NCBI GenBank assembly: GCA_900617105.1
Contig: UYFQ01000005.1
Coordinates: 124,001-188,000 of the forward strand
Reading direction: 5' to 3'
DNA length: 64,000 nt
From: Hydrurus foetidus
Taxonomy: Eukaryota
Under the pieces are notes generated by a model, which was not told the origin of the DNA, searched no databases, and saw nothing but the letters and a program-made list of their open reading frames with translations. The position numbers and the translations under genes were made by a program. Positions 740-59,570 of this stretch are shown in pieces. Each line of letters opens with the position of its first letter. The first letter of the stretch is position 1.

Positions 740-3601
740 TCAGGCTTCCACAGCCGCTGACACAGCCTCCACCCGCACCGCGCAATGCTTGAACCCCGGA
801 ATCTTTCCAAACGGGTCTAACGCCGCGTTGGTCAGCAAATTCGCCGCCGCTTCCGCGTAGGCAAACGGGATGAACACCGAGCCTTCGGGCGTGCCGTTGT
901 CCAAACGGGCCAGCAGCGTGACGCTGCCACGACGCGAGCGCACGGCAATGTGACCACCCGCAGGAACACCCAGCCGGGCCAAGTCTTTGGCGCACAGGCT
1001 CGCAGTGGCTTCAGACTCCAAAGCGTCCAACACAGTGGCCCGCCTCGTCATGCTGCCGGTGTGCCAATGCTCCAACTGACGGCCCGTGATGAGCGTGAAG
1101 GGGTAATCCGCATCGGCGCGTTCGTCAGCAGGGATGAGGCCAGCGGGGACGAGCTTCAAACGGCCATCAGCCGTTGCGAACTGGTTGATGAAGACGGTGG
1201 GCTGACCAGGGTCTTCGGCGCTCAGACAAGGGTAGGTGACGCTGCCCTCACGCTCCAAGCGTTCCCAGGTGATGCCCGCGATGGCGGTGTGCATGGCTTG
1301 ACGCATCTCCTCGTACACAGCGGCCACGCCATCGTGTTCGCCCGCATAGTTCCACTGCAAACCCAAGCCCGCAGCGAGCTGCTGGATGATCCACAAATCA
1401 GGCCGCGCATCGCCGGGGGCATCAATGGCTTTGCGGCCCATTTGCACCATGCGGTCGGTGTTGCTGACGGTGCCGGTTTTCTCGGGCCAAGCCGTCGCGG
1501 GCAGCACCACGTCAGCGAGCCACGCGGTTTCGGTCATGAAGATGTCTTGCACCACCAGATGCTCAAGAGAAGCCAAGGCGTGGCGGGCGTGGTTCAAGTC
1601 AGGGTCGCTCATGGCGGGGTTTTCGCCCATCACGTACATGCCGCGTATTTTGTGCGGATCGCTGTCATCAGCGAGCGCCTTGTGCATGATTTCAACCACC
1701 GTGTAGCCGGGGGTTTTGTCCAACGGTGTTTGCCAGAAATCTTCAAACCAAGCGTGGGCAGCTGCGTTGTCCACGCGCTGGTAGTTGGGGAACATCATCG
1801 GGATCAAACCCGCGTCGCTGGCACCTTGCACGTTGTTTTGTCCGCGCAAAGGGTGCAAGCCGCTGCCGGGTTTGCCGATTTGGCCGGTGACGGCGCACAG
1901 CGCGATCAGGCAACGGGCGTTGTCGGTGCCGTGAACGTGCTGACTGATACCCATGCCCCACAGGATCATCGCGCTTTTGGCGGTGGCGAAGGCACGGGCC
2001 ACCTCGCGGATGGTTTCCGCCGGGATGCCACAAACCGGAGCCATCGCTTCGGGGCTGAAGTTGGCCACGTTTTCGGCCAGAGCGCTGTAGTTATGGGTGC
2101 GGTCAGCTATAAATTGCGTAGCAACCAGCCCCTCTTCAATCACCGTGTGGATCATGGCGTTGAGCAGAGCGACATCGCTGTCGGGCTTGAACTGCATCGT
2201 GCGCCACGCATGGCGGCCCATGTCGGTGATGCGCGGGTCAGCGAGGACGATTTTGGCACCACGCTGGGAAGCGTTTTTCATCCAGGTGGCGGCAACGGGG
2301 TGGTTGGCCGTGGGGTTGGAGCCGATCACCATGATGAGCTCGGCATGCTCCACGTCATTCACTTGGTTGCTGACAGCCCCTGAGCCCACGCCCTCCAGCA
2401 GTGCCGCAACGCTGGACGCATGGCACAAGCGGGTGCAGTGGTCGACGTTGTTTGAGCCAAAGCCGGTACGCACCAGTTTTTGGAACAGGTAGGCTTCTTC
2501 GTTCGTGCCTTTGGCGCTGCCAAAACCGGCGAGCGATTTGGGGCCGTAGCCATCGCGCAGCCCCGTTAATTTGCCCGTGGTCAGGGCCAGCGCTTCTTCC
2601 CAGGTGGCTTCGCGGAAGACTTCGCGCCAATCGGCATCGCGCACCGAGATGCGGGCGTTGAGCGCCTCTGCGTCTTTGGGCACATCAGCGCGGCGAATCA
2701 AGGGCACGGTGAGGCGACCCGCATGGTGAACGTAGTCGAAGCCAAACCGGCCTTTGACGCACAAGCGGCTTTGGTTGGCCGGGCCATCGCGACCATCCAC
2801 GCCGACGATTTTGTCGTCGCGCACCTTGTAGGTCAGCAAGCAGCCCACGCCGCAGAACGGGCAGACGGAATCGACGGCTTTATCGACGACTTGAGGGCCG
2901 ATAAGGGTCTTGGGGCTGAGTGCGCCGGTGGGGCAGGCTTGGACGCATTCCCCGCAAGCCACACAGCTGCTTTCGCCCATCGCATCGTTCAGGTCGAACA
3001 CGATCTCGCTGTGCGCCCCGCGTTTGGCGTAGCCGATCACGTCGTTCACCTGCTCTTCGCGACAGGCACGCACGCAGCGGTTGCACTGGATGCAAGCATC
3101 CAAGTTGACGGCCATCGCGGGATGAGACACGTCAGACGGGGGCTGTTCGCGGCGCAACGCTTTGAGTGCAGGTCGCACCGTCACGTCCATTGCGGTCGCC
3201 CAAGCGCTGAGTTCGCCATGCTGCTGGGTGGCATCGTCTTTACCCTGCGCATCGGCCAGCCATTTGTGCCCGGTGTCGGGCATGTCGGACAGCAGCATCT
3301 CCAGCACCATCTGCTGGCTTTTGAGCGCGCGAGGGCTGTTGGTTTGAACCGTCATCCCCGCTGTGGCCACACGGCAGCAGCTGGGAGCCAACGTGCGCTC
3401 ACCCGCCACTTCGACAACACACGCGCGGCAGTTGCCATCGGGGCGCATGCCGTCTGTGTAGCAAAGGTGGGGAATGTCAATGCCATGGCGCTGAGCGGCT
3501 TTGAAGAGGGTTTCGCCCTCGTAGGCCTGGATAGCGAGATTATTGAGTTGCAGGTCAACCATGATGGGGGTGACTTCGGCTCGTGTGGCTGGTGCGTTCA
3601 T
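740..3601 (-). CDS. fdhF: NAD-dependent formate dehydrogenase alpha subunit (molybdopterin Mo/W, N-terminal Fe-S domains; FdwA/Fdh1A-like)
   Basis: 2Fe-2S motif (HLC..GNCRACVVE), two 4Fe-4S CxxCxxCxxxC motifs, CPFCGVGC, active-site DHCTRLCH (Cys, not Sec), LRGQNNVQG. Confidence 0.95.
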   Translation of the reverse strand: MNAPATRAEVTPIMVDLQLNNLAIQAYEGETLFKAAQRHGIDIPHLCYTDGMRPDGNCRACVVEVAGERTLAPSCCRVATAGMTVQTNSPRALKSQQMVLEMLLSDMPDTGHKWLADAQGKDDATQQHGELSAWATAMDVTVRPALKALRREQPPSDVSHPAMAVNLDACIQCNRCVRACREEQVNDVIGYAKRGAHSEIVFDLNDAMGESSCVACGECVQACPTGALSPKTLIGPQVVDKAVDSVCPFCGVGCLLTYKVRDDKIVGVDGRDGPANQSRLCVKGRFGFDYVHHAGRLTVPLIRRADVPKDAEALNARISVRDADWREVFREATWEEALALTTGKLTGLRDGYGPKSLAGFGSAKGTNEEAYLFQKLVRTGFGSNNVDHCTRLCHASSVAALLEGVGSGAVSNQVNDVEHAELIMVIGSNPTANHPVAATWMKNASQRGAKIVLADPRITDMGRHAWRTMQFKPDSDVALLNAMIHTVIEEGLVATQFIADRTHNYSALAENVANFSPEAMAPVCGIPAETIREVARAFATAKSAMILWGMGISQHVHGTDNARCLIALCAVTGQIGKPGSGLHPLRGQNNVQGASDAGLIPMMFPNYQRVDNAAAHAWFEDFWQTPLDKTPGYTVVEIMHKALADDSDPHKIRGMYVMGENPAMSDPDLNHARHALASLEHLVVQDIFMTETAWLADVVLPATAWPEKTGTVSNTDRMVQMGRKAIDAPGDARPDLWIIQQLAAGLGLQWNYAGEHDGVAAVYEEMRQAMHTAIAGITWERLEREGSVTYPCLSAEDPGQPTVFINQFATADGRLKLVPAGLIPADERADADYPFTLITGRQLEHWHTGSMTRRATVLDALESEATASLCAKDLARLGVPAGGHIAVRSRRGSVTLLARLDNGTPEGSVFIPFAYAEAAANLLTNAALDPFGKIPGFKHCAVRVEAVSAAVEA
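2105..2153 (+). repeat. Dispersed fixed-spacing motif, partial copy (in FDH alpha)
   Basis: AGCTATAAATTGCGTAGC; only the left half matches. Confidence 0.5.
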
Positions 3602-5418
3602 GCGGCGCTCCCGATTTCTTGGGGAAAGTATTTTTGAATGCTGCGAATCGGGTTAGGCGCGGCCTGCCCGAGTCCGCAGATGGAGGCGTCACCCATGACT
3701 TGGCTCAAGTCCTCCAGCGTGTCGTTGTCCCACACGGGGGACTGCATCAGTTGGGCGGCTTTGGCGGTGCCGACGCGGCAGGGGGTGCATTGGCCGCAGC
3801 TTTCTTCCTCGAAGAAACGCATCACGTTCAGTGCTGCGTCGCGGGCTTTGTCGTGGTGGCCTAGGACGATGACGGCGGCCGAGCCTATGAAGCAGCCGTA
3901 GGGTTGCAGGGTGTCGAAATCCAGCGGGATGTTGTTAAGAGAAGCGGGCAGGATGCCGCCGCTGGCGCCGCCGGGCAGGTAGGCGTAGAGCTGGTGGCCG
4001 TCCGCCATGCCGCCGCAGTGCTCGTCAATCAGCTCTTGCAGCGTGATGCCTGCGGGGGCGATTTTGACGCCGGGCTGCTTGACCCGGCCACTGACGCTGA
4101 ACGAGCGAAAGCCTTTACGTCCGTGGCGGCCTTGCTCAACGAACCACTGGGGGCCGTGCTCGATGAGGTCGCGCACCCAGTACAGGGTTTCGAAGTTGTG
4201 CTCTAGCGTGGGGCGACCAAAAAGGCCAACTTGGGCAATGTAGGGTGGGCGCATGCGGGGCTCACCGCGTTTGCCTTCTATGCTCTCGATCATGGCGGAC
4301 TCTTCGCCGCAGATGTAGGCGCCGGCACCGCGACGCAGCTCAATCAAGGGCAAATTAGGGTATGGCGGATCGGCACGCAGCTTGGCCAATTCGGTGGTCA
4401 ACATGGCGCGGCAGTCATGGTATTCGTCGCGCAGATAAATGTAGATGGCGCTAATGCCTACGACTTGGGCGGCGATCAACATGCCCTCTAAAAATCGGTG
4501 CGGGTCGCGCTCCAGGTAGAAACGGTCTTTGAAGGTGCCGGGCTCGCCTTCGTCGATATTGACGGCCATGAGCTTGGGCGCAGACTCACCCCGCACGATG
4601 CGCCACTTGCGCCCTGCCGGAAAGCCCGCACCGCCTAAGCCACGAAGGCCCGAGTTTTCCATCGTTTTAAGGACAGCCTCCGTGTCTTGGGTGCCGGTGG
4701 CCAGGGCTGTGGCGAGGGCATAACCGCCCTCAGCACGGTAGGTGGCGTAATCTAAATTAATAGCTGAATTTGCATATGGATATTGCTGAAAAGGCACTTT
4801 TGATGCTGAAATTTCGCTCAAAACAACCGATTGCAAAATGTCCAGATCAGCATGAGGCACCGCACGCTGGCCCACCAGTGCAGCAGGGGCTTGCTCGCAG
4901 CGACCTATGCAGGGGGCTGCGATCACGCGGATATCGGCCTTACCCTCTTCACCACCCAAGATAGCGGGCAAACGGGCCAGCAAATCCTGCGCACCCGCCA
5001 GCGAACAGGCCAAGCCGTCGCACACCCGCACGGTCAGGCTGGGGGCGTGACCGTCGCCGTTCTCATCCCCTTTGACGACTTCAAAGTGGTGGTAGAAGGT
5101 GGCGACCTCGTACACCTCGGCCATCGAGAGCTTCATGGTTTTGGCCAAGGCCACCAGATGGCGGTCGTGCAAACAGCGGTAGGTGTCGTTCAGGCAGTGC
5201 AAATGCTCGATGAGCAAATCACGCCGGTAGCCGGTGGCGGGCTTCTCGCCGATCAATGCCTGCACCTCGGCCAGTGACACGTCGTCAGGCTGGCGGCCTT
5301 TGAGTTTGCTTTTGCGGTTGTTATCACGGCGCAAGCGCTCGCGCAACGCATCGGCAGTGGCCAGCAGGACGACGTTTTCAACAGCTTGGGGGGCAGTGCG
5401 TGGGGGGAGAAGGTTCAT
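3598..5418 (-). CDS. Formate dehydrogenase beta subunit (NuoE-like + NuoF-like fusion; FMN/NADH binding)
   Basis: EVATFYHHF, CDGLAC and CIGRC (NuoE-like); GLRGLGGAGFP, DEGEPGTFKD, GAGAYICGEE, SCGQCTPCRVG (NuoF-like). 4-bp overlap with the alpha gene. Confidence 0.93.
   Translation of the reverse strand: MNLLPPRTAPQAVENVVLLATADALRERLRRDNNRKSKLKGRQPDDVSLAEVQALIGEKPATGYRRDLLIEHLHCLNDTYRCLHDRHLVALAKTMKLSMAEVYEVATFYHHFEVVKGDENGDGHAPSLTVRVCDGLACSLAGAQDLLARLPAILGGEEGKADIRVIAAPCIGRCEQAPAALVGQRAVPHADLDILQSVVLSEISASKVPFQQYPYANSAINLDYATYRAEGGYALATALATGTQDTEAVLKTMENSGLRGLGGAGFPAGRKWRIVRGESAPKLMAVNIDEGEPGTFKDRFYLERDPHRFLEGMLIAAQVVGISAIYIYLRDEYHDCRAMLTTELAKLRADPPYPNLPLIELRRGAGAYICGEESAMIESIEGKRGEPRMRPPYIAQVGLFGRPTLEHNFETLYWVRDLIEHGPQWFVEQGRHGRKGFRSFSVSGRVKQPGVKIAPAGITLQELIDEHCGGMADGHQLYAYLPGGASGGILPASLNNIPLDFDTLQPYGCFIGSAAVIVLGHHDKARDAALNVMRFFEEESCGQCTPCRVGTAKAAQLMQSPVWDNDTLEDLSQVMGDASICGLGQAAPNPIRSIQKYFPQEIGSAA
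4747..4795 (+). repeat. Dispersed motif copy (FDH beta interdomain linker)
   Basis: GTAATCTAAATTAAT AGC TGAATTT GC ATATGGATATT GC TGAAA AGGC; left end degenerate. Confidence 0.6.
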
Positions 5419-13145: not shown

Positions 13146-15251
13146 ATGACCATCACCACATCCCCCCGCAAACTCTTCGTCACCACCGCCCTCCCCTACG
13201 CCAACGGTAACTTCCACATCGGTCACATCATGGAGTACATCCAGGCCGATATTTGGGTGCGCGTTCAACGCATGCAGGGCCACAGCGTGAACTTCGTCGG
13301 GGCGGACGACACCCACGGTGCGCCCATCATGATTGCCGCCGAAAAAGCAGGCAAGACACCGCAGCAGTTCGTGGCCGATATCGCTGCCGGACGCAAGCCC
13401 TATCTGGAAGGCTTTCACATCGCGTTTGACAACTGGCACAGCACCGACGCGCCTGAAAACCACGCGATGGCGCAACAAATTTACCGTGACCTGAAAGCCA
13501 ATGGCCTGATCGCCAGCAAGGTGATCGAGCAGTTCTTTGACCCTGAAAAGAACATGTTCTTGCCTGACCGCTTCATCAAAGGCGAATGCCCCAAGTGCCA
13601 CAGCCTTGACCAGTACGGCGACAACTGCGAAAACTGCGGCGCGGTGTACGCCCCCACGGACTTGATCAACCCCTTCTCTGCGCTGAGCGGGGCTAAGCCG
13701 GTACTCAAGTCTTCCGAACACCTTTTTTTCACCCTGTCTGACCCGCGCTGCGTGGAATTTTTGGAGCGTTGGACGCAAGACGGCAAGCTGCAACCCGAGG
13801 TGGCGAACAAGGTCAAAGAATGGTTCTCCGTGCGTACCAACCCCGACGGCACGACGAGCGAAGGCTTGGGCGACTGGGATATCAGCCGCGATGCGCCCTA
13901 CTTCGGCATTGAAATCCCCGATGCCCCAGGCAAATACTTCTACGTCTGGCTGGACGCCCCCGTGGGCTACCTCGCCTCGCTGCAAAATTTGCTGAACAAG
14001 CGCGGCGAAGACTACGACGCCTACATGGCCGACCCGGCACTGGAGCAGTACCACTTCATCGGCAAAGACATCGTCACCTTCCACACCTTGTTTTGGCCTG
14101 CGATGCTGCATTTCAGTGGCCGCAAGACACCTACCTCGGTGTTTGTGCATGGCTTTTTGACCGTCAACAACGGTGAAAAGATGAGCAAGAGCCGGGGCAC
14201 TGGGTTGGATCCGCTCAAATACCTGAGCCTGGGCATGAACCCCGAGTGGCTGCGCTACTACATCGCCGCCAAGCTGAATGGCCGCAACGAAGACATCGAC
14301 TTCAACCCCGATGATTTTCTGGCGCGAGTGAACAGCGATCTGGTGGGCAAGTACATCAACATCGCTTCGCGGGCTGCGGGCTTCATCGCCAAACGCTTTG
14401 CTGGAAAATTAGGTGCCTTATCGGACTCTGGCGCTGAATTGGTCAGCGTACTCAGCTCACAAAATGAGAGCATTCAGCAGCTCTACAACGACCGCGACTA
14501 CGGCAAAGCCCTGCGTGAAGTCATGCTCTTTGCCGACCGTGTGAACGCGTACGTTGACCAAAACAAACCCTGGGACATCGCCAAGCAGCCGGGGCAAGAC
14601 GAGCGCCTGCAAGACGTATGCAGCACCTGCATCGAAGCCTTCCGCCTGCTCACCGCCTACCTCAAGCCGGTGCTGCCAGCATTGGCCGGCCAGGTGGAGG
14701 CGTTCTTGCAGTGCGCGCCACTGGACTTTGCGAACGCCACCACGCCTTTGGGCGCAGGCCACACCATCGGTGACTACAAGCACCTGATGCAACGGGTTGA
14801 CCCCAAAGTGCTTGAGGCTTTGTTTGAAGTACCAGAACCGGCTTCACCGCTTGCTTTATCTGCGCTAGAAGCTATAGAAAACGTAGCACCCGGCGGCGAA
14901 GCCATCGCCCCCACCATCGGCATCGACGACTTCGCCAAAATCGACCTGCGCATCGCCAAAATCGTCAACTGCGAGGCAGTGGCGGGCAGCACCAAGCTGC
15001 TTCGTCTGACGCTGGACGTGGGTGAAGCCCAGCACCGCAACGTCTTCAGCGGCATCGCCAGCGCCTACAAGCCCGAAGACCTCATTGGCCAGCTCACCGT
15101 GATGGTGGCGAATTTGGCCCCACGCAAGATGAAGTTTGGCGTGTCCGAGGGCATGGTGCTGGCAGGCAGCCACGGGGATGAGAAAACCAACCCTGGCATC
15201 TACGTGCTGACACCATGGCCGGGTGCTGTACCTGGCATGCGGGTGCGTTAA
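13146..15251 (+). CDS. metG: Methionine--tRNA ligase with C-terminal tRNA-binding domain
   Basis: [12 protein letters not shown] (HIGH), KMSKS, zinc knuckle, C-terminal [25 protein letters not shown]. Confidence 0.98.
14424..14472 (-). repeat. Dispersed motif copy (in metG)
   Basis: TGCTCTCATTTTGTG AGC TGAGTAC GC TGACCAATTCA GC GCCAG AGTC. Confidence 0.75.
14840..14888 (-). repeat. Dispersed motif copy (metG linker)
   Basis: TGCTACGTTTTCTAT AGC TTCTAGC GC AGATAAAGCAA GC GGTGA AGCC. Confidence 0.85.
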
Positions 15252-18069: not shown

Positions 18070-19461
18070 ATGGATACTTTGATGCTGTCGCGCTTGCAGT
18101 TTGCAGCCAACATCAGCTTTCACATCCTCTTCCCCACCATCACGATTGCCTTGTGCTGGTTTTTGCTGTTCTTTAGGGTGCGCTTCGTGCAGACGAAAGA
18201 CCCGGCGTGGGACGAAGCCCATTATTTTTGGACCAAAGTCTTCGCGCTGACCTTTGCACTGGGCGTGGTGTCAGGCATCGTGATGAGCTTTCAGTTCGGC
18301 ACCAACTGGCCGGGCTTCATGCAAAAGACGGGCAATATCTCGGGGCCGCTGCTGGGCTACGAAGTGCTGACCGCGTTCTTTTTAGAAGCCACCTTCCTGG
18401 GCATCATGCTGTTTGGCAGAGGGCGGGTGTCTGAACGGGTGCATGTGGTGGCAACGGCGTTGGTCACGTTGGGCACCACCATGTCGGCGTTTTGGATCTT
18501 GAGTTTGAACTCGTGGATGCAAACCCCCGCAGGCTATGAGATCGCCTTTGGCAAGTTTTACGCCAAAGACTGGCTGGAAGTGGTGTTCAACCCTTCTTTC
18601 CCCTACCGATTCGCGCATGTACTTATTGCATCTACGCTGACTGCTTCTTTTTTAATAGCAGGTTTGTCCGCATGGCAGTTGCTGAAAAACAGCGCCACCG
18701 CTGGTACGCACAAGGCGATGCGCACCGCCCTCATTGCGGCAGCCATTGCGATGCCTTTGCAGTTTTTGGTGGGCGATGCACATGGCCTGAACACCTTGCA
18801 CCACCAGCCCGCCAAGATCGCCGCCATTGAAGGCATCTGGCACACCGAAAAGGGCGCACCGCTGACGCTGTTTGGTTGGCCTGACGAAAAACAAGGCAAA
18901 ACGCTGTACGCGGTGCAAATCCCCAAGCTGGCCAGCCTGATTTTGGCGCACGACATTGACGCGGAACTCAAAGGTTTGAATGAGTTTGAGGGCAAGCACC
19001 CACCCGTCGCCCCGGTGTTCTGGGCCTTCCGCGTGATGGTGGGTGTGGGCAGCTTGATGCTGGCGGTGGCGTGGTTCAGCGTGCTGATGCTGTGGCGCAG
19101 CCGGGGCACGCAGCGCTCAGGAGTCAGTGTGGTCAGTCTGCCCAAACCACTGCTCATCGTGCTGTCGTGCATGACGTTTGCAGGCTGGGTGGCCACCTTG
19201 GCGGGCTGGTACGTGACGGAAATTGGCCGTCAGCCGTTCATTGTTTACGGCTTGGTTCGCACGAGTGAGGTCGTAGCGCAAACCGCACCGCCCCTGGTGG
19301 CTATCACGCTGGCGGCCTATGTGATCGTCTACGGGCTGCTGCTGGTGACGTATGCCGGGGTGCTGAAGTACATGGCGGAGAACCCGCACAAACATGCACC
19401 GCATGGCGCGGAAACACCCCATGCCGTGGTGGGCGTACACACCCCCGTCATCGTCCATTAA
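18070..19461 (+). CDS. cydA: Cytochrome bd ubiquinol oxidase subunit I (short Q-loop, CioA-like)
   Basis: SRLQFA..FHILFP, FQFGTNW, NSWMQTP, QPAKIAAIEG, EIGRQP. Confidence 0.96.
   Translation: MDTLMLSRLQFAANISFHILFPTITIALCWFLLFFRVRFVQTKDPAWDEAHYFWTKVFALTFALGVVSGIVMSFQFGTNWPGFMQKTGNISGPLLGYEVLTAFFLEATFLGIMLFGRGRVSERVHVVATALVTLGTTMSAFWILSLNSWMQTPAGYEIAFGKFYAKDWLEVVFNPSFPYRFAHVLIASTLTASFLIAGLSAWQLLKNSATAGTHKAMRTALIAAAIAMPLQFLVGDAHGLNTLHHQPAKIAAIEGIWHTEKGAPLTLFGWPDEKQGKTLYAVQIPKLASLILAHDIDAELKGLNEFEGKHPPVAPVFWAFRVMVGVGSLMLAVAWFSVLMLWRSRGTQRSGVSVVSLPKPLLIVLSCMTFAGWVATLAGWYVTEIGRQPFIVYGLVRTSEVVAQTAPPLVAITLAAYVIVYGLLLVTYAGVLKYMAENPHKHAPHGAETPHAVVGVHTPVIVH
18612..18660 (-). repeat. Dispersed motif copy (in cydA)
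   Basis: TGCTATTAAAAAAGA AGC AGTCAGC GT AGATGCAATAA GT. Confidence 0.65.
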
Positions 19462-20519: not shown

Positions 20520-21800
20520 CTACCCCTGCGCGATGACGGTGCGCTCCACCAGCCGGTCATCGCCCAGCACGATCATCGCAAACAGCAGCTCGTCCAAACT
20601 GCGGGCTTGGGTGGTTTTGCGGGCCAGCAAAGGCGTGGCCTCGGGGTTCAAGACGATGAAGTCAGCCTCGCAGCCTACAGTCAAGTTGCCCACCATGCCA
20701 CCCAAGCCCAACGCGGCTGCAGCACCTGCAGTGTGCTGCCACCACAGGTGCTGAGGGCTTAAAGACAGACCCGGCTTGGTTTGTCCTTCTCGTCCCACGT
20801 AATAAGCGGCCAGCATGGTGTGAAACGGGCTGAAGCTGGTGCCACCGCCGACATCGCTGGCCAAGCCATAACGGTAGCCCGCACGGTTTGCTGCATCGTA
20901 ATCAAAGAATCCGCTGCCTAAAAACAAATTGCTGGTGGGACTGACCGCCGCCGCCGCACCGCTGTCACGCATCAAGGCGCGGTCAGCGTCGTCAAAATGG
21001 ATACAGTGGGCGTAGACCGCACGCTCGCGCAGCAGGCCGAAATCGCCGTAAACGCCCAAATAGCTGCGCGATGTGGGAAACAACTCGCGCACCCAAGCAA
21101 CTTCGTCTTTGTTTTCGGCAACGTGGGATTGAATCCACACATCAGGGTATTTGGCAGCCAACTCGCCCGCCCCCTTCAGCTGCGCCTCGGTGGAGGTGGG
21201 CGCAAAACGTGGCGTAATGGCGTAACCTAGACGACCCACGCCATGCCATTGCTGAATCAGCGTTTCGGTGTCGATCAGGCTTTGCTCGGTGTCATCGCGC
21301 ACGCCGTCCGGGGAGTTTCGGTCTTGCAGCACTTTGCCGGTGATGAGGCGCAGGTGGTTCTTTTGCGCCTCAGTGAACAGCGCGTTGACTGAAGCCGGGT
21401 GAGAAGTGGCAAACGTAAGCGCGGTGGTCACGCCGTTGCGCAGCAATTCTGCTATAAAAAACTGAGCTACCTCAGCAGCATAGTCAGGCGCTGAGAAGCG
21501 TTTTTCATGCGGGAAAGTGTAATTCTCTAGCCACGGAAGCAAGCCCGCAGCCGGGGCACCGATCACATCGGTTTGCGGGTAGTGGATGTGCAAATCCACA
21601 AAACCCGGCGCGATGATGCGGCCCGGCAAATGCTCGACAGGCACATCCGGAAATTGCCCCCTCAATGCGCTGTAAGCACCTACCGCCAGTACCGTCTCAC
21701 GCCCCAGGGCGTTAGGCGCAACCACCAAGAGGCCATCATCCTCATAGTGTGCGCAATGGTCATCGGAGAAGCGAAGAATGGCGGAACGGTAGGCTTTCAT
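20520..21800 (-). CDS. guaD: Guanine deaminase
   Basis: PGFVDLHIHYPQ, YAITPRFA, QSHVAEN, ASDVGGGTS. Confidence 0.95.
   Translation of the reverse strand: MKAYRSAILRFSDDHCAHYEDDGLLVVAPNALGRETVLAVGAYSALRGQFPDVPVEHLPGRIIAPGFVDLHIHYPQTDVIGAPAAGLLPWLENYTFPHEKRFSAPDYAAEVAQFFIAELLRNGVTTALTFATSHPASVNALFTEAQKNHLRLITGKVLQDRNSPDGVRDDTEQSLIDTETLIQQWHGVGRLGYAITPRFAPTSTEAQLKGAGELAAKYPDVWIQSHVAENKDEVAWVRELFPTSRSYLGVYGDFGLLRERAVYAHCIHFDDADRALMRDSGAAAAVSPTSNLFLGSGFFDYDAANRAGYRYGLASDVGGGTSFSPFHTMLAAYYVGREGQTKPGLSLSPQHLWWQHTAGAAAALGLGGMVGNLTVGCEADFIVLNPEATPLLARKTTQARSLDELLFAMIVLGDDRLVERTVIAQG
21450..21498 (+). repeat. Dispersed motif copy (in guaD)
   Basis: TGCTATAAAAAACTG AGC TACCTCA GC AGCATAGTCAG GC GCT. 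Confidence 0.8.
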
Positions 21801-23399: not shown

Positions 23400-23512
23400 G
23401 GCGACATCCTTCAGTGAAGAAAAATCAGTTATCGAACATAGCAAAAACCTAATCTGTCATCATCACACTGCATGAAAACCCTTACCCTTCACGGGACAAG
23501 CCCCACACCAAC

Positions 23513-23583
23513 GGCCCACCTTTTTCAGTCAAACGCTCTTGCAACTCGTCCAAAAAGGCTTCGACCGAGGAAGTATCGACAAA
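23513..23583 (-). pseudogene. Decayed internal fragment of yceH
   Basis: 62/71 nt identical to 25824-25894; translates [23 protein letters not shown] vs [23 protein letters not shown]. Confidence 0.85.
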
Positions 23584-25573: not shown

Positions 25574-26260
25574 CTATGGCGAGCTGGCAGAGGTGAGAGC
25601 GGCTGGCAATGCCAAACCCAGCTCGTGTGCCAAATAGGCGACTGCGCTGCTCAACTGGGCCACCTCTTGCTCCAACGCAAGCACACGGCTTTGCAGCGTG
25701 GAATCATGGGTACCGTCTACAGCACCAGAACGGAGCAAAGCCGAGGCATCTACCGGGCCACTCAACAAATGCGCCCAGCGTTGTTCACGCGCCCCCGGCG
25801 TACGCGGCAGACACACCACCAGTGGCCCACCTTTTTCAACCGAACGCTCTTGCAGTTCGTCCAAAAAGGCCTCAACCGAGGAAATATCGGCAAACTTGTA
25901 CCAACGCTCGGTGTTGATGCGCAGCTCGCCCGCCGTTTGAGGGCCACGCAAGATCAGCAAGCCCAAGATCACCGCCGATTGCTCGGGCACACCCACGCCG
26001 CGCTGGAAGTTGTGCTCGTAGCGAGCTACGCGGCCACCGCTGGATTCGTGCGTCAAGTTCAGCAGCTTCAACTCGTCCAACGCCTCTTGGGCTTGGGCGT
26101 CAGTGATGTTCATCACCACGTCACGGCTGGTTTTTTGATTGCAGCCACTGACCAACGCGTTCAGCGTCAGTGGGTAGGTGTCAGGCACCGTGCGGGCCTT
26201 TTCCATCAGCGTACCGAGAACACGGGCTTCAATGGCGCTAAGGGGTCTTATCGTGGGCAT
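25574..26260 (-). CDS. yceH: YceH / DUF480 family protein
   Basis: [49 protein letters not shown]. Confidence 0.92.
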
Positions 26261-28291: not shown

Positions 28292-30353
<2,062 letters not shown>

Positions 30354-37918: not shown

Positions 37919-40266
37919 ACACCACAACAGCCTCTTCAACAGCCCCTGCCCCAGCCGTTTCAGCAAGCCCCGCAGCAGGCCAATCCCGCCCGCACGAAAG
38001 CGCCCGCGCCCAAGTCGCCGGGGCTGCCACCTACATCGACGACATCCCCGAGGTCAAAGGCACGCTGTACGCCGCGCCCATCCTCGCAACAGTCGCCCAC
38101 GGGCGGCTGCGGGGTGTGGACACCAGCGCCGCGCGGGCCATGCCCGGTGTGCGCGGCGTGATCGTGTCCAGCGACATCCCCGGCGACCCCATCCTCGCCA
38201 GCTTCTCGCACGACGAACCCATCTTTGCCACCACGCTGGTCGAACACATCGGCCAAGTCATCGGCGTGGTGGTGGCAGATTCGGTGATGGCGGCGCGGCG
38301 TGCTGCGCGGCTGGTCTTGCTCGACATCGAAGCCCTGCCCGCCATCCTCACCGTGCAAGACGCATTGAAGGCGCAAAACTACGTGCTGCCCCCCGTCACC
38401 GTCACCCGAGGCGACGCGGTGGCTGCGATGCAAACCTCCCCACACACGCTGACAGGCACGCTCGAAGTCGGCGGCCAAGAGCACTTCTACCTGGAAGGCC
38501 AAGTCGCCTACGTGCTGCCCCAAGAGCAAAACCAGTGGCGCGTCTACAGCAGCACCCAGCACCCCGGCGAAACCCAGCACTGGGTGGCGCACGCGCTGGG
38601 CTTGCCCGTCAATGCCATCACCGTCGAATGCCGCCGCATGGGCGGGGGCTTTGGTGGCAAAGAAACCCAAAGCGGCCACATGGCGGTATGGGCCGCGGTG
38701 GCGGCGAACAAACTCAAATGCCCCGTCAAACTGCGCCTAGACCGCGACGATGATTTCATGGTCACAGGCAAGCGCCACCCCTTCTTTTACGACTACACCG
38801 TGGGCTTTGACGACACGGGCCGCATCACCGCCCTGCAACTGATGATGGCAGCCAACTGCGGCTTCAGCGCCGATTTGAGCGGCCCGGTGGCCGACCGCGC
38901 CATCTTCCACGCCGACAACGGCTACTACCTGAGCGACGTGGCCATCACTTCGTACCGCTGCAAACTCAACACCCAAAGCCACACCGCCTTCCGAGGCTTC
39001 GGCGGGCCGCAGGGGATGATCGTCACCGAAGCCATCATCGGCAACATCGCCCGCCAGCTCGGCCTGGACGCGCTGGACGTGCGCCAACGCAATCTCTACG
39101 GCACCCCGGAGCACGAACCCGAGCGCAGCACCACCCACTACGGCATGGCGGTGGAAGACAACATCCTGCCACAATTGCTATCAAAATTAGAGCTGTCTGC
39201 GCAGTATCGAGAAAGGCGAGAGGCCATAAAGGCTTGGAACAAGACCAGCCCCGTCATCCAGCGCGGCATCGCCATCACCCCGGTCAAATTCGGCATCAGC
39301 TTCACCGCCACACTGTTCAACCAAGCCGGGGCGCTGGTGCATGTCTACACCGATGGCAGCGTGCAGGTGAACCACGGCGGCACCGAGATGGGCCAAGGCT
39401 TGAACACCAAAATCGCCCAAATCGTGGCCGATGAACTCGGGGTGCCCTTCGAGCGCGTGCAGTCCACCGCCAGCGACACCAGCAAAATCCCCAACGCTTC
39501 GGCCACCGCCGCGTCTGCTGGCACCGATTTGAATGGTCGCGCCGCCCAGTTCGCCGCCCGCCACGTGCGCGACAACCTGGCCGCATTCGTCTGCGGGCTG
39601 GACGCTTGCGGTGCAGGTGCCGTGCGCTTTGCCGGTGGGCAGGTCATCACGCCAACGCGCACGCGCAGCTTTGACGAGGTGGTGGCAGCGGCCTACGCCA
39701 ACCGCATCCAGCTGTGGAGCGACGGCTTTTACCGCACACCCAAAATCCACTACGACAAAACCACCCTGACCGGCCGCCCGTTCTACTACTTCGCCTACGG
39801 CGCCGCCTGCACCGAAGTCGCCATCGACACGCTGACAGGCGAGAGCCGGGTGCTGAAGGTGGACATCCTGCACGACGTAGGCACCAGCATCAACCCCGCT
39901 ATCGACATCGGTCAAATCGAAGGCGGCTTCGTGCAGGGCATGGGCTGGTTGACGACAGAGGAGCTGGTCTGGAACGCCAAAGGCCACCTTTCCACCCACG
40001 CCCCAAGTACCTACAAAATCCCAGCAACGGGGGACATCCCCGCGCACTTCAAAGTCGATCTGTGGCCCGAGCCGAACCGCGAAGACAACGTGTTCGGCTC
40101 CAAAGCCGTGGGCGAGCCACCGTTCATGCTGGCGATCAGCGTGTTCGAGGCGCTGCGGGATGCGGTCGCAGGTGTGACTGGGGCGGTACAGCCGGGGTTG
40201 AATGCGCCTGCTACGGGGGAGCGGGTGTTAGGGGCGTTGGGGGCGTTGGGGGCGTTGGGGATTTGA
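37915..40266 (+). CDS. xdhB: Xanthine dehydrogenase molybdopterin-binding subunit
   Basis: GQEHFYLE, RMGGGFGGKE, TAFRGFGGPQG, GGTEMGQG, SKAVGEPP. Confidence 0.96.
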   Translation: MNTTTASSTAPAPAVSASPAAGQSRPHESARAQVAGAATYIDDIPEVKGTLYAAPILATVAHGRLRGVDTSAARAMPGVRGVIVSSDIPGDPILASFSHDEPIFATTLVEHIGQVIGVVVADSVMAARRAARLVLLDIEALPAILTVQDALKAQNYVLPPVTVTRGDAVAAMQTSPHTLTGTLEVGGQEHFYLEGQVAYVLPQEQNQWRVYSSTQHPGETQHWVAHALGLPVNAITVECRRMGGGFGGKETQSGHMAVWAAVAANKLKCPVKLRLDRDDDFMVTGKRHPFFYDYTVGFDDTGRITALQLMMAANCGFSADLSGPVADRAIFHADNGYYLSDVAITSYRCKLNTQSHTAFRGFGGPQGMIVTEAIIGNIARQLGLDALDVRQRNLYGTPEHEPERSTTHYGMAVEDNILPQLLSKLELSAQYRERREAIKAWNKTSPVIQRGIAITPVKFGISFTATLFNQAGALVHVYTDGSVQVNHGGTEMGQGLNTKIAQIVADELGVPFERVQSTASDTSKIPNASATAASAGTDLNGRAAQFAARHVRDNLAAFVCGLDACGAGAVRFAGGQVITPTRTRSFDEVVAAAYANRIQLWSDGFYRTPKIHYDKTTLTGRPFYYFAYGAACTEVAIDTLTGESRVLKVDILHDVGTSINPAIDIGQIEGGFVQGMGWLTTEELVWNAKGHLSTHAPSTYKIPATGDIPAHFKVDLWPEPNREDNVFGSKAVGEPPFMLAISVFEALRDAVAGVTGAVQPGLNAPATGERVLGALGALGALGI
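39176..39224 (+). repeat. Dispersed motif copy (in xdhB)
   Basis: TGCTATCAAAATTAG AGC TGTCTGC GC AGTATCGAGAA AG GCGAG AGGC. Confidence 0.85.
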
Positions 40267-40359
40267 AGCCTTGGATGAAACCGCACCCGATCAACCCTGG
40301 GCCGAATTCGCTATCATTCCTTAGATTTCATAGCGACTTACCCACTTCAGCCCATCCAA

Positions 40360-41408: not shown

Positions 41409-41457
41409 TGCTATATTTTCAGTAGCTCACAGCGCATACCAAAAAAGCGCTAAAGCC
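41409..41457 (+). repeat. Dispersed motif copy (intergenic, closest to consensus)
   Basis: TGCTATATTTTCAGT AGC TCACAGC GC ATACCAAAAAA GC GCTAA AGCC. Confidence 0.88.
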
Positions 41458-41468
41458 CTTTTGCATTG

Positions 41469-41512
41469 GAAATACCCAATATGGGCATGATGAAACCCAA
41501 TATGGGTATTTC
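41469..41512. promoter_or_regulatory. Operator-like repeats of a decayed wHTH-nucleotidyltransferase gene
   Basis: ACCCAATATGGG twice (41474-41485, 41495-41506) within outer inverted arms GAAATACCCA/TGGGTATTTC. Confidence 0.6.
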
Positions 41513-42892: not shown

Positions 42893-42993
42893 GGTGTCTC
42901 CTAAAGGAAGCCGCCAAACGCTGGCGGGAAGAAAGAATATACAGTCATGCGCATTCTCTTGTTTAATCATCCTTTGACTATTTTTTGACCATC

Positions 42994-49255: not shown

Positions 49256-49403
49256 GCTCATTGAAAAGCATATTTCCCTGATTTTTCAGCACAGGCAACG
49301 CTGGAAACGGGATTTCTTTGACAGGGGGACACGTCATGCACCGTCACCATCGGCAGCTACATCAGCAACTCGTCCTCGATCAGCGCTGGCAGGTGAGCGG
49401 CAC
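49256..49403 (-). pseudogene. Internally deleted duplicate of yceD
   Basis: Three colinear blocks match 51993-52060, 52111-52175 and 52308-52330; the second junction lies at a shared CAGCGCT. Confidence 0.88.
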
Positions 49404-51717: not shown

Positions 51718-52006
51718 CGATTTAAAAAATAAATTGCAACAACTCAATGATAAAGAGCTTTGAGAAACCTTAGTACAAATAAAAATTCATGCTACTAACA
51801 TGGTATTTGAAAATGAGTAATGCTATCGCAGCCTAGGCTACTTTGCGGCACAACAGTCTTATTCAGTTTACTCGTTGAGGGTGGCTTTGTCACATAAATA
51901 CTTTGCAGGCCCAGGGCTGTTCCTGTCGTTTGACGCTACCCGCCTCGGAGGAAGCTATTTGTGCAACAAAGTCCTTCAGACTTGAACTCGACGCTCATTG
52001 AAAAGC

Positions 52007-52564
52007 TTATTTCCCTGATTTTTTCAACCCCGCCAACGCGGCAAAGGGGTTTTCTTTGGCGGACACAGCCTCTGCAAACCCAGCATCCGCTACTTGCAGC
52101 TTCACTTTGACGGGGCACACGTCATGCACCGGCACCATAGGCAACGACATCAGCAACTCGTCCTCAACCAGCGCTTGCAAATCAAACGTGTGGCTGGTGA
52201 CGAGCAAATCTTCTTCAGCATCGTCGTCTTGCGCCTCGGCGGTGGCCTCGTCCGCGACAAAGCGAAACCAGCGGTCAGCGTACAAATCAGCGTCCATGCG
52301 GGTCAGGCAGCGCTGGCAGGTGAGCGGCACGCAGGCATCTGCGGTGATGTGCAGCCAGGCCTGCGAAGGCTCACCGTGTTTTTCGCGCCACTCACCTTGG
52401 GCAGTCCATTCCACGGTGGAATCCGTGGGTGAATCAGCGTCAGGTGCAAGGCTCTCATGGGTTAGGCGCTCATATTTTGAGAGTGGATCAGTAGCGCAAA
52501 GCGTGGCATTAGCCAGGGCAAAGGCTTGAACATCAAGGCGTAGGGGGTCAAACTCTGTAGTCAT
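52007..52564 (-). CDS. yceD: YceD / DUF177 family protein
   Basis: LTCQRCL, LVEDELLMSLPMVPVHDVCP, ENPFAALAGLKK; divergent from maf. Start 52564. Confidence 0.93.
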   Translation of the reverse strand: MTTEFDPLRLDVQAFALANATLCATDPLSKYERLTHESLAPDADSPTDSTVEWTAQGEWREKHGEPSQAWLHITADACVPLTCQRCLTRMDADLYADRWFRFVADEATAEAQDDDAEEDLLVTSHTFDLQALVEDELLMSLPMVPVHDVCPVKVKLQVADAGFAEAVSAKENPFAALAGLKKSGK

Positions 52565-53278: not shown

Positions 53279-54090
53279 TGACCCCGACGACAACATTAAA
53301 CACGGACAAACCCATGAACGGTCGCCTCTACCTCGTCCCCGCGCCTTTGGATTTCGGCTGTGACACCCAAGCCCCGCTGGACGATGTGATCCCCCGTGGC
53401 ACGCTGGTCGTCGCGGCGCGTTTGCAGCACTGGGTGTGCGAAAACGCCAAGACCACGCGGGCTTATTTGAAGCGTGTTAACGCCTTGCAGCCCTTGTCCT
53501 GCGAGCTACAGGCGCTACACATTCAGGAGTTACCGCGTGAAGTCCACAAAAAGGGCGACCACCAGCCCCACAGCTTTGACGCCAAGCCGCTGCTGGCCGC
53601 TGCACTGGCGGCGAACGGCGGGCACGACATCGGGCTGGTCAGCGAGGCGGGAATGCCTGCGGTGGCTGACCCTGGTTCGTCCGTGGTGCGGGCCGCCCAT
53701 GAACTGGGGCTGACGGTGGTGCCGCTGGTCGGGCCGGTGTCACTGCTGCTGGCCTTGGCGGCGAGCGGCTTGAACGGGCAAAACTTCGCCTTTGTCGGCT
53801 ACCTGCCCCAGGATGGCGATGCCCGTACCGCACGCATCCGCGAGCTGGAGTCCCTGGCACTGAAAACCGGCCAAGCGCAGTTGTTCATTGAAACGCCCTA
53901 CCGCAATGCGCAGTTGCTGCAAGCATTGGTACAGACGCTGCAAGCCAATACCCGGCTGGCCGTCAGCAGCGGCTTGACGCTGGCGACGGCGGCGACGTGC
54001 AGCCAAGGGGTGAAAGCGTGGAAGCAGAACTTGAACGCCGCCGGTGCGCCGAACAATTCGACACCGGCGGTGTTTGCTATCGGGCGGTAA
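53275..54090 (+). CDS. SAM-dependent methyltransferase (tetrapyrrole methylase/RsmI-like)
   Basis: GRLYLVP, SEAGMPAVADPG, PLVGPVS, FIETPYRN. Confidence 0.88.
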   Translation: MMTPTTTLNTDKPMNGRLYLVPAPLDFGCDTQAPLDDVIPRGTLVVAARLQHWVCENAKTTRAYLKRVNALQPLSCELQALHIQELPREVHKKGDHQPHSFDAKPLLAAALAANGGHDIGLVSEAGMPAVADPGSSVVRAAHELGLTVVPLVGPVSLLLALAASGLNGQNFAFVGYLPQDGDARTARIRELESLALKTGQAQLFIETPYRNAQLLQALVQTLQANTRLAVSSGLTLATAATCSQGVKAWKQNLNAAGAPNNSTPAVFAIGR

Positions 54091-57056: not shown

Positions 57057-57074
57057 GTCGTGAGGTGTGCAGGT

Positions 57075-57208: not shown

Positions 57209-58669
57209 TCAAGCCGTCCCCCCCACCGTCAACCCATCAATCCGCAGCGTAGGCTGACCCACGCCCACAGGCACGCTCTGGCCTTCTTTGCCACACGTAC
57301 CCACACCGGGGTCAAGCTTCATGTCATTGCCGATCAAACTGACTTTCTTCAGGCATTCTGGCCCGCTGCCCACAATCGTGGCGCCTTTGACGGGGTACAA
57401 AATCTTGCCGTTTTCAACCCAAAACGCTTCGCTCGCAGAGAACACAAACTTGCCTGAGGTGATGTCCACCTGACCGCCGCCGAAGTTGCTGGCGTACAGG
57501 CCTTTTTTGATGCTGGCGATGACTTCTTGCGGGTCTTTGTCGCCGCCCAGCATGTAGGTGTTGGTCATGCGCGGCATGGGGACGTGGGCGTAGCTTTCGC
57601 GGCGGCCGTTGCCGGTGGGTTTGACACCCATCAGGCGGGCGTTCATGCTGTCTTGGATGTAGCTTTTCAGGATGCCGTCTTCGATCAGTACGTTACGCTG
57701 ACTGACATGGCCTTCGTCGTCCACGTTGAGGGAGCCACGGCGGTCTGGGATGGTGCCGTCGTCGAGCACCGTCACGCCCTTGGCGGCGACGCGCTGACCA
57801 ATGCGGCCTGCGAAGGCGCTAGAGCCTTTGCGGTTGAAATCACCTTCCAGGCCGTGGCCGATGGCTTCGTGCAGCAAGATGCCGGGCCAGCCGGAGCCCA
57901 GCACCACAGTCATCTCGCCTGCGGGGGCGGGGCGGGCCTCTAAGTTGGTCAAGGCGGCATTCACCGCATCGCTCACGTATTCTTCGATCTTGGCCTCGTC
58001 AAAGTAGGCGAAGCCAAAGCGGCCACCACCGCCACCAGAGCCGGTTTCGCGGCGGCCATTTTGTTCGACCATCACGGTGACGGACAAGCGTACCAGCGGG
58101 CGCACATCGGCGGCCAGGGTGCCGTCCAGGCGAGCGACCATCACCACGTCGTACTCGCTGGCCAAACCGGCCATCACTTGGATGATGCGCGGGTCTTTGG
58201 CGCGCGCTAGTTTTTCGACGCGGCCCAGCAGCTCGACTTTGGCGGTGCTGTCCATCGAGGCGATGGGGTCAAGGCCGTTGTAGAGCGAGCGGCTTTTTGC
58301 TATCTTTTGGGTAGCTACCTTCGCCCGTTTGTTCTGCGATGCAGCCGAAATCGTGCGCACTGTGCGTGCCGCATCGAGCAGCGAGGCTTCAGAAATATCG
58401 TCCGAGTAAGCGAACGCGGTTTTTTCGCCGCTGACGGCCCGCACACCCACACCTTGGTCGATGCTGAAGGAGCCGGTTTTGACGATGCCCTCTTCCAGAC
58501 TCCAGCCTTCGCTGCGGGTGTATTGGAAGTACAAATCGGCATCGTCCACCTGGTGGGCGGTGATCTCGGCCAGCGCACGGCGCAGGTGCGACTCGTCGAG
58601 ACCGAAAGGTTGGAGCAGCAGGCCTTGGGCAACGGCCAAGCGTTCAATGGTGGGTTCGCGTGAAATCAT
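57209..58669 (-). CDS. tldD: Metalloprotease TldD
   Basis: DADLYFQ, DVRPLVR, LLHEAIGHGLEGDFNRKG, PRMTNT, CGKEGQ. Start 58669. Confidence 0.96.
   Translation of the reverse strand: MISREPTIERLAVAQGLLLQPFGLDESHLRRALAEITAHQVDDADLYFQYTRSEGWSLEEGIVKTGSFSIDQGVGVRAVSGEKTAFAYSDDISEASLLDAARTVRTISAASQNKRAKVATQKIAKSRSLYNGLDPIASMDSTAKVELLGRVEKLARAKDPRIIQVMAGLASEYDVVMVARLDGTLAADVRPLVRLSVTVMVEQNGRRETGSGGGGGRFGFAYFDEAKIEEYVSDAVNAALTNLEARPAPAGEMTVVLGSGWPGILLHEAIGHGLEGDFNRKGSSAFAGRIGQRVAAKGVTVLDDGTIPDRRGSLNVDDEGHVSQRNVLIEDGILKSYIQDSMNARLMGVKPTGNGRRESYAHVPMPRMTNTYMLGGDKDPQEVIASIKKGLYASNFGGGQVDITSGKFVFSASEAFWVENGKILYPVKGATIVGSGPECLKKVSLIGNDMKLDPGVGTCGKEGQSVPVGVGQPTLRIDGLTVGGTA
58298..58346 (+). repeat. Dispersed motif copy (in tldD)
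   Basis: TGCTATCTTTTGGGT AGC TACCTTC GC CCGTTTGTTCT GC GATGC AGCC. Confidence 0.85.
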
Positions 58670-59570
58670 GGTGGGATTGTAGGTATTTGAAAACTGCCGC
58701 ATCGTCCAGCTCAGCCATGCCCGCCTGGGAGGCTGCCTCAAACACCGCTGCGGCGCTGGCACCCAGCGGGCCGGTGAAGCCTGCGGCTTGGGCAGCAGCC
58801 ACGGCGAGGCGGGTGTCTTTTTGCAGCAGCGTCATGTGGGCGCGGGGGGCGTAGTCGCCCTCGCCCACAACTTCGCCCGCGTTCACCAAGACACGCCGCA
58901 TGCGGTCGGTGCCGATCCAGCTTTGGCCGCTGGACTGCTCGATCACACGCAACGTGGTGGCCAAATCCAAGCCCATGCGCTGGGCCATCGCCATGCCTTC
59001 CGCCGCGCCAACGAGGTTGATGCCTGCGACGAGGTTGTTCACCAGCTTGGTACGTGCACCGTCACCAGGGCGCTGGCTGACGTGGTGGCGCTGGTGCGAC
59101 AAGGCTTGGAGCAGCGCGTCGTTCGCTGCCAGCACGGCATCGGGGGCGGCCAGCATCAGGCTCATGCTGCCATCGCGGGCACGGGCTGGGCCGCCGGACA
59201 TGGGTGCGTCGATGGTGTGGACACCGCGCTCAGCCAGCAGGCGAGCGAAGCGCTCCACGTCTTCGGGGGCGATGGTGGGGCACAGCAGCACGGTGTGGCG
59301 GGATGAGAAGCTCTCGTGGGCACCATTGGGGCCAAAAAGCACGGATTCGGTTTGCGCCGCGTCCACCACACAGACGATGAGCGCTATGCAATTCAGAGCT
59401 ACCCACGCAGCATTGGCGTGTAGCACAGCCCCCAATGCTTGCAATTCAGCCGTTTTAACCGCGTCCACGTCATGCACATGAACGGGCCAGCCCTGTGCGA
59501 GCAAATTAGCGGCCATCGCACCACCCATGTTGCCAACGCCGATGATGCCGATGTGTGGTTTGTGGCTCAT
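58644..59570 (-). CDS. NAD(P)-dependent beta-hydroxyacid dehydrogenase (3-hydroxyisobutyrate dehydrogenase family)
   Basis: GVGNMG, DAPMSGG, KLVNN, LQKD. Confidence 0.9.
   Translation of the reverse strand: MSHKPHIGIIGVGNMGGAMAANLLAQGWPVHVHDVDAVKTAELQALGAVLHANAAWVALNCIALIVCVVDAAQTESVLFGPNGAHESFSSRHTVLLCPTIAPEDVERFARLLAERGVHTIDAPMSGGPARARDGSMSLMLAAPDAVLAANDALLQALSHQRHHVSQRPGDGARTKLVNNLVAGINLVGAAEGMAMAQRMGLDLATTLRVIEQSSGQSWIGTDRMRRVLVNAGEVVGEGDYAPRAHMTLLQKDTRLAVAAAQAAGFTGPLGASAAAVFEAASQAGMAELDDAAVFKYLQSHHDFTRTHH
59382..59430 (+). repeat. Dispersed motif copy (in the beta-hydroxyacid dehydrogenase gene)
   Basis: CGCTATGCAATTCAG AGC TACCCAC GC AGCATTGGCGT GT AGCAC AGCC. Confidence 0.75.

Follow-up and report, generated by a model that had tools for sequence, protein, structure and literature searches.

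A 66-bp DNA motif recurs throughout a 64,000-nucleotide stretch of contig UYFQ01000005.1 (assembly GCA_900617105.1, deposited as Hydrurus foetidus; positions 124,001 to 188,000), which we refer to here as the window. This motif is real, is found family-wide in the Comamonadaceae, and is largely undescribed, and there is strong evidence that it is shaped in place in the DNA inside genes. The window organism is itself a member of the Comamonadaceae, as its MetG is closest to that of locus L041 (83-84%) and its XdhB is 81-82% identical to those of several family genomes. An initial annotation of the window had listed 12 copies of a motif of ~49 bp with fixed spacing, most of them within protein-coding genes. 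All 12 copies are present, the host gene names given for them are borne out, and the peptides quoted (LLSKLEL, RAIKTEAA, VATQKIA, and ASFLIA) can be read from the window. Two details had to be corrected. The copy placed at position 2105 exists but was misoriented: it lies on the minus strand and starts at 2123, while the apparent plus-strand copy at 2105 is its left palindrome in reverse reading. Also, the original length was too short, as the motif extends over ~66 bp and includes two more A/T tracts (motif positions 52-55 and 62-65).

To score individual copies, we used a 66-column matrix trained solely on copies from 80 metG loci of other Burkholderiales genomes, where the same motif was found by scanning. 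This matrix recovered all 12 listed copies, with scores of 12.6 to 51.6 bits, and uncovered three more, in an adenosine deaminase gene, in an rsmI-like gene, and in an intergenic region. Thus, the window holds 15 sites above 12 bits in 64 kb, 13 in coding sequences (CDSs) and 2 between genes (Table 1). These numbers far exceed chance. The pattern of the initial annotation, with up to two mismatches, matched 9 times, compared with 100 codon-shuffled controls that averaged 1.5 matches and never exceeded 3; with the matrix, the 13 CDS matches above 12 bits compare with an average of 0.46 over 200 synonymous recodings of the whole window, none of which had more than 2. Each of the 13 CDS copies also outscored recodings of its own peptide (the fraction reaching the observed score was at most 3.5e-4 of 20,000), although these sites were picked post hoc and the whole-window recoding is the fair test. 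The copies had been described as patches of rare codons, and CTA, ATA, and TTA do account for only 2-5% in window genes. Genome-wide tests were run on two relatives, Acidovorax sp. LjRoot129 (G325) and G201; the latter is the closest relative by xdhB and has the most motif sites in common with the window.

The anatomy of the motif was determined from 193 of the about 800 copies on one Acidovorax chromosome (about a quarter sampled). On the left is a palindrome, GCTAY-N7-RTAGC, with an A/T center and a dyad centered near position 10; within it, the AGC at positions 16-18 is invariant in 99-100% of copies. A middle dyad, GCGCTT-N7-AAGCGCT, is centered at position 33, with GC steps at 24-27 and 39-42, and the right part carries GGC at 47-49 followed by the two A/T tracts. 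The spacing of these blocks is rigid, with zero offset at 116 of 118 held-out G325 sites and at all 84 G201 sites, which confirms the fixed, gap-free spacing originally proposed. In total, the motif contains ~69 bits of information, where ~14 bits would be enough to locate 800 sites. The strongest couplings between columns are adjacent AA/TT steps, which suggests that the shape of duplex DNA is read out, and coupling falls off with distance. No base-pair covariation was detected in either dyad, where the observed values equaled those expected from independent columns. The closest pair among the 193 copies is identical at 58 of 66 bases, as predicted by a third-order positional model, and no families of near-identical copies were found in this sample. 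Neighboring copies in opposite orientation lie at fixed start-to-start distances of 18 bp (5 cases, with the left palindrome in common) or 105 bp (10 cases).

A strict pattern search of 301 Comamonadaceae genomes yielded 10 to 552 matches in 61 genomes and none in 194, with reversed-pattern controls giving 0 to 2 matches per strand. In the genus of G325, 58 of 67 genomes have at least 36 loose matches and 9 have 15 or fewer. Motif-rich genomes include Acidovorax, Diaphorobacter, Simplicispira, Curvibacter, and most tested Rhodoferax and Polaromonas, and motif-poor ones include Delftia, Hydrogenophaga, Limnohabitans, Paracidovorax citrulli, Comamonas koreensis, and most Variovorax. The label "motif-poor" is approximate because regular-expression counts mislabel some dialects of the motif; genome G346 and several Comamonas, for example, are missed by these counts and show normal matrix matches. 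On a quick single-gene tree of MetG, the rich or poor state changed at least 6 to 7 times. Outside the family, 250 other genomes of the class have at most 11 left-palindrome matches each, compared with 353 in G325 and up to 18 in controls; this class-wide result does not depend on the rows for two unpublished genomes (G494 and G572). On average, a site occurs every 6.7 kb in G325 and every 3.4 kb in G201.

Parts of this element have surfaced before. Tong, Schliekelman, and Mrazek (2017; PMC5217627) reported pentamer pairs that they termed potential novel motifs, and in the part of their data available to us (for Rhodoferax, 30 of 140 rows), several pairs fall exactly on the 66-bp motif: GCTTAT-N5-AAGCG of Acidovorax ebreus at positions 26-41, ATAGCT-N22-CAAAAG of Polaromonas naphthalenivorans at positions 14-47, and Rhodoferax pairs such as TGCTA-N36-CTAGA at positions 1-46. 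As far as the available text goes, these pairs were reported separately for each genome, with no common element, CDS analysis, or mechanism. A search that covered mostly open-access literature yielded no published account of the element as a whole, of its copies in coding sequences, or of a function. Whatever the function, these scattered pairs can now be merged into one testable element of a major freshwater, soil, and host-associated family.

The initial annotation had suggested that the motif is written into codon choice and not inserted. In structured regions, ortholog alignments agree: at the xdhB, C-terminal xdhA, fdhA, and guaD sites no ortholog differs in length, the dehydrogenase site has a single exception (counts in Table 1), and the site at metG amino acids (aa) 423-445 has the length seen in the window in most orthologs. 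In flexible linkers, however, proteins with a site are longer, so insertion could have contributed there. The xdhA linker site is absent only from 4 of 30 orthologs, all from motif-poor genomes and with linkers that differ by ~2 aa; the 30-ortholog samples for xdhA and xdhB were drawn mostly from motif-rich genomes. Nor is the rewriting purely synonymous. Although residues typical of each family are retained across the sites, 4 of the 6 sites tested show an excess of residues that few orthologs have (fdhA, 9/23; metG, 9/23; metG linker, 5/22; xdhA, 7/23); no such excess was seen at the xdhA linker (3/20) or in xdhB (2/23). Intergenic sites also hold their position, in 18 of 20 genomes of the genus Acidovorax. 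In the two remaining, motif-poor genomes, one site has decayed in register at equal length and the other is partly deleted, so that a gap of 55-63 bp in most carriers has shrunk to 19 bp. The earlier inference that selection acts on the DNA itself, to which we would add drive as an option, is supported by the lack of indels in structured regions, the rigid spacing, the lack of stem covariation, and the decay in lineages without the system.

The dialects of the motif are genome-specific. With the scored orthologous sites left out of matrix training, the xdhA site scored 44.6 bits on its own matrix and 7.8 on the foreign one in G325, and 78.2 and 50.1 bits, respectively, in G201; for the metG linker site, the corresponding pairs were 33.7 and 12.1 (G325) and 62.4 and 32.2 (G201). 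All 27 G201 CDS sites scored better on the G201 dialect. Because old sites follow the dialect of their own genome and copy families are lacking, we conclude that each site is shaped in place toward the current preference of its genome.

The placement of sites differs between genomes. Of 150 G325 sites, placed with the help of our own gene caller, 24 lie in CDSs; the 102 convergent gaps hold 46 sites, the 395 co-directional gaps 73, and the 123 divergent gaps 7. Therefore, the statement that copies lie mostly inside genes holds for the window (13/15) but not as a general rule (24/150 in G325 and 35/105 in G201). The CDS share rises from G325 to G201 to the window as GC content drops (65%, 61%, and 58%), which would be expected if substitution writes the A/T-rich blocks. 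Nearly half of the coding copies (23 of 48) are in one frame, antisense phase 2, and copies within genes are found in both orientations. Along a complete Acidovorax chromosome, 46 plus-strand and 47 minus-strand strict matches are intermixed, showing no strand bias. We considered and rejected a replichore polarity of the KOPS (FtsK-orienting polar sequence) or Chi type, as the apparent plus-strand runs were a listing artifact and there is no strand switch at the origin or terminus. Sites are spaced more evenly than randomly chosen slots (coefficient of variation, 0.75 versus 0.92 +/- 0.07; P = 0.003). They also avoid DNA of probable foreign character: slots beside genes of low third-codon-position GC content (GC3) are depleted (6/61 versus 107/436 others in one stretch; 2/34 versus 31/164 in a second), and 210 sites in 1.4 Mb of the G325 chromosome compare with 0 in 200 kb of a second replicon, contig C2 (56% GC).

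What maintains such an element? It is quite conceivable, albeit still short of probable, that the motif spreads by molecular drive as a self tag of the DNA-uptake type. Fragments with a better site would be favored at a step of DNA transfer that depends on sequence and is probably uptake during natural transformation, and alleles carrying that site would then replace their homologs by recombination. The biased step would be uptake itself, with a protein that presumably reads both the sequence and the shape of the duplex, and drive, not host benefit, would lie behind the surplus information. Drive through biased transfer would account for the surplus information and the amino acid cost, for sweeps of dialects and the even spacing, and for sites that are absent from foreign DNA and decay once the system is lost; it would fix rare linker insertions as well. 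Of the roles for a DNA-binding protein raised in the initial annotation, the evidence leans toward this uptake-type signal; a topoisomerase finds no support, with a site at only 1 of 20 ends of rRNA operons and rplQ.

The known uptake sequences, the uptake signal sequences (USS) of Pasteurellaceae and the DNA uptake sequences (DUS) of Neisseriaceae, resemble the 66-bp motif in having hundreds to thousands of dispersed, evenly spaced copies in both orientations, in arising in place within genes (for the motif, in structured regions, next to length gains in linkers), in their frame bias, peptide enrichment, and dialects, in being missing from foreign DNA, and in placing A/T tracts next to a GC core. 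According to the available text of PMC2817400, mutation and recombination, not insertion, give rise to these sequences, which are found in either orientation, are spaced more evenly than chance would have it, are biased in frame, and do not occur in genes that lack homologs; what we could access of PMC2397512 adds that new DUS frequently emerge in one step, and of PMC7811141 that the USS likewise holds A/T tracts read by shape. The Acidovorax block ACAAGCGCT is one base from the Actinobacillus pleuropneumoniae core ACAAGCGGT given in PMC2817400, which may be chance. The accessible portion of PMC4212676 shows natural transformation of Acidovorax temperans and A. facilis, for which it names no uptake sequence, and describes uptake by Verminephrobacter eiseniae that resists competing DNA.

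Several observations weigh against an uptake signal. The cores of known uptake sequences are 9-10 bp long, non-palindromic, and present about once per kilobase (PMC2817400, available text), whereas the 66-bp motif is built of dyads, carries ~69 bits, and, at one per 3.4-6.7 kb, is 4-7 times sparser. We do not class it as a USS or DUS because it lacks the short non-palindromic core of known members, and its dyad build would suit a dimeric cytoplasmic protein. The search for a partner was also negative: gene-presence profiling of RAYT (REP-associated tyrosine transposase), ComEC, ComP/PilE, and HhH/ComEA revealed no binder. ComEC (57/58) and a ComP/PilE domain (56/58) are present irrespective of motif status, short HhH proteins are found in both motif-rich and motif-poor genomes, and a tree of PilE, the pilin covered by this comparison, shows no grouping by motif status (of 500 shuffles, 81 scored as low). 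Linker lengths also weigh against it, with phage TerS linkers of 67-73 aa with the motif peptide versus mostly 48-64 aa without it and a MetG linker ~6 aa longer in site carriers. Scores are bimodal in G325 and G201, with so few intermediate sites that no route from background sequence to a complete site can be seen there; the window holds more mid-range sites. Barriers to recombination could by themselves account for the species-restricted transformation of A. temperans, and for V. eiseniae, the one member of the family in which selective uptake has been shown, the 2017 table, as far as available, gives one unrelated pair and none of the 66-bp motif (PMC5217627). That pair, GGCAG-N45-CTGCC, has 274 copies, 90% of them intergenic (supplement 2, row 487).

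If the uptake reading is right, the motif is a third, unrelated, and much longer uptake signal whose repeated losses and dialects offer an independent test of selfish drive versus benefit; according to the available parts of PMC7811141, PMC2817400, and a 2025 bioRxiv preprint, uptake sequences have been described for two families only. It would also account for the rare-codon patches and odd peptides in these proteomes and would offer a handle for transforming Acidovorax-group bacteria. More tentatively, this would be an independently evolved, genome-wide self-recognition signal, the third of its kind, that rewrites ~20 codons of conserved enzymes and re-tunes about a thousand sites when its receptor shifts, in chromosomes and resident phages.

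Uptake is not the only process that could keep a duplex site in place. A dimeric or tetrameric nucleoid-associated protein might bind dyads about two helical turns apart, bend the A/T tracts, and organize the chromosome or its supercoiling, with direct selection keeping the sites; we regard this as unlikely, but it accounts for several features well. The dyads centered near 10 and 33, the pairing axis at 53, and the fixed geometry of paired copies suit a cytoplasmic dimer array better than an uptake signal, and the rigid block spacing, the preference for convergent gaps, and the left dyads kept in motif-poor genomes, one of them upstream of gyrB, also fit. KOPS, matS, parS, and Chi sites and the operators of LysR- and Lrp-type proteins are protein-read duplex sites that may lie in genes. 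In its anatomy, the left dyad appears to conform to the T-N11-A rule for LysR-type proteins and to be similar to Lrp-family boxes; such operators presumably also repeat their dyads ~21-24 bp apart, as the motif does. In contrast to these sites, the motif shows no strand polarity or regional clustering, is present in many more copies than operators, shuns divergent promoters, and has a much higher information content. A protein that organizes the chromosome is further at odds with the sites at 0 of 10 rRNA operon ends (4 genomes) and 1 of 10 rplQ ends, versus ~23% of ordinary slots, with the lack of a link between sites and the length of converging transcription runs (P = 0.39) next to a weak link with codon bias (P = 0.02), and with the lack of replichore polarity. 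Also, 69 bits would be well beyond its needs, and a small benefit per site would hardly explain rewritten conserved residues and genome-wide dialect shifts. If such a protein does exist, it is a new chromosome organizer with about a thousand high-information sites.

Somewhat more doubtful is a repetitive extragenic palindromic (REP)-like element or Rickettsia palindromic element (RPE)-like element, copied by a domesticated enzyme, inserted in gaps and linkers, and homogenized by gene conversion able to overwrite coding DNA. RPEs add peptides in linkers, a likeness to the 66-bp motif. REP sequences, their hairpin-forming doublets (REPINs), and bacterial interspersed mosaic elements (BIMEs), together with their RAYTs, resemble the motif in being short, abundant, intergenic, and rare in divergent gaps (an avoidance also noted in the available part of PMC5217627). 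In the Acidovorax dialect, an RTAG tetramer is followed by a stem of 7 bp with imperfect pairing, and folding at z < -2 is seen for 65% of 60 copies; the bimodal scores, the length gains in TerS and MetG linkers, and the intergenic gap that is short where the site is lacking could likewise come from an inserted element. But the stem is broken in the G201 dialect, where the middle part reads TTGAGCAG and AAGGGCT and only 30% of 60 copies fold at z < -2, and neither covariation in the dyads nor a conserved hairpin supports it. Copy families are lacking, no terminal repeats or target duplications were seen at motif copies, and the sites are stable across species and genera and are written at equal length into folded domains. 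Nor did a PF01797 profile search, limited to that enzyme family, find a cognate RAYT that is flanked by the motif and co-occurs with it. Of 50 genomes, both motif-rich and motif-poor, 48 have a conserved single-copy RAYT-like gene (~232 aa) upstream of gltB, and a motif copy above 15 bits accompanies only 5 of 30 Y1_Tnp loci, with the shared copy at the 3' end only. The RAYT-like gene at gltB (loci L087-L110) has short repeats of its own, TGTCCCC / TCTGACCCC.

An RNA role, as a terminator, pause, processing, or stability element, is very improbable: sites often lie within 30 bp of a stop codon and Acidovorax copies can form a hairpin, but co-directional gaps hold 41 sense versus 32 antisense sites, of 33 roomy gaps only 15 have the site closer to the upstream stop, copies in the middle of genes run in either orientation, and covariation is lacking. 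None of 4227 Rfam families matched the window at gathering score, and Burkholderiales-1 RNA, which has a different sequence, was rejected as a candidate.

Motif copies extend to mobile DNA, where dialects can trace island donors and phage hosts. Viral contigs contain 114 motif loci, and 50 viral records picked for holding a match have 49 loose matches in ~2.2 Mb, about one third of host density. In phages, copies fall, for example, in the tails of Cro-like proteins and in the linkers of TerS and primase. A role as a packaging (pac) site was rejected, since phage copies lie beside many gene types, with 4 TerS among the 148 frames scanned (of 164, from 100 dereplicated loci). Cro-like proteins of 11 phage loci (L212-L312) end in motif-derived tails such as AQAATENVA, which suggests C-terminal accretion and a use in host prediction. 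A search of plasmids by blastn, which has low sensitivity here, gave two partial matches, to Comamonas and Acidovorax plasmids. In an otherwise motif-free Limnohabitans genome (G343), one full copy of 66 bits in a Rhodoferax-like dialect lies beside low-GC3 restriction-type genes (L451:1453-1518) and is likely a tracer of horizontal transfer.

Some motif-poor genomes (G366, G344, G340, and G335) keep 9 to 37 left palindromes each, compared with 0 in Hydrogenophaga and 2 in Limnohabitans. These are often directly upstream of housekeeping genes, which we take, from their N-terminal sequences, to be gyrB, folE, ubiE, parA, hisH, mlaD, and plsX. They may be co-opted promoters, because TGCTAT resembles an extended -10 box. 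An apparent extra symmetry of these dyads was rejected as a product of the symmetric search pattern.

Table 1. Copies of the 66-bp motif in the window, with scores on the matrix trained on other genomes
Location of copy	Positions	Strand	Score and comparison with orthologs
Formate dehydrogenase alpha (fdhA), sense; lineage-specific	2058..2123	-	21.5 bits; 13/13 orthologs without indel, 0 with motif
Linker of NuoEF-like formate dehydrogenase beta, antisense	4747..4812	+	32.6 bits; motif in 10/18 orthologs; linker length variable in 18/18
metG aa 423-445, antisense	14407..14472	-	37.3 bits; equal length in 48/78 orthologs; site common only to L041
metG C-terminal linker, antisense; ancient	14823..14888	-	46.9 bits; in 31/76 orthologs; linker of carriers ~6 aa longer
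cydA, antisense; weak	18595..18660	-	12.6 bits; 1 ortholog checked, equal length, without motif
guaD, antisense	21450..21515	+	16.9 bits; equal length across site in 120/120 homologs
Adenosine deaminase, antisense; missed by initial annotation	28557..28622	+	23.7 bits; indel and motif both absent in 2/2 orthologs
xdhA interdomain linker, sense; ancient	36951..37016	+	46.5 bits; in 26/30 orthologs
xdhA C-terminal domain, sense; recent gain common to G201	37693..37758	+	18.1 bits; 30/30 orthologs without indel, 1 with motif
xdhB, sense	39176..39241	+	45.4 bits; 30/30 orthologs without indel, 19 above 12 bits
Intergenic, between convergent ORFs 40360-41373 and 41750-42970	41409..41474	+	51.6 bits, strongest in window
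Intergenic; weak; missed by initial annotation	52420..52485	-	17.5 bits
rsmI-like methyltransferase gene, antisense; additional	53466..53531	-	29.3 bits; 1 ortholog checked, equal length, without motif
tldD, antisense; common to G201	58298..58363	+	28.3 bits
3-Hydroxyisobutyrate/threonate dehydrogenase-family gene, antisense	59382..59447	+	19.1 bits; equal length in 119/120 homologs; 62.5 bits in G201

Other repeats were noted in the window. The 3' end of xdhB contains a 9-nucleotide (nt) tandem repeat (40214-40273), and a 93-nt direct repeat (81%) has one copy between two chemoreceptor genes (23491-23583) and the other inside the open reading frame (ORF) at 25574-26260 (25802-25894). Duplicated pieces of 31 nt (97%) and 68 nt (88%), at 49256-49391 and 51993-52179, lie on either side of ORF 50011-51747, whose product matches a Mep72-like metzincin protease below the cutoff; situated near a yceD-like gene, they are possibly an insertion scar.

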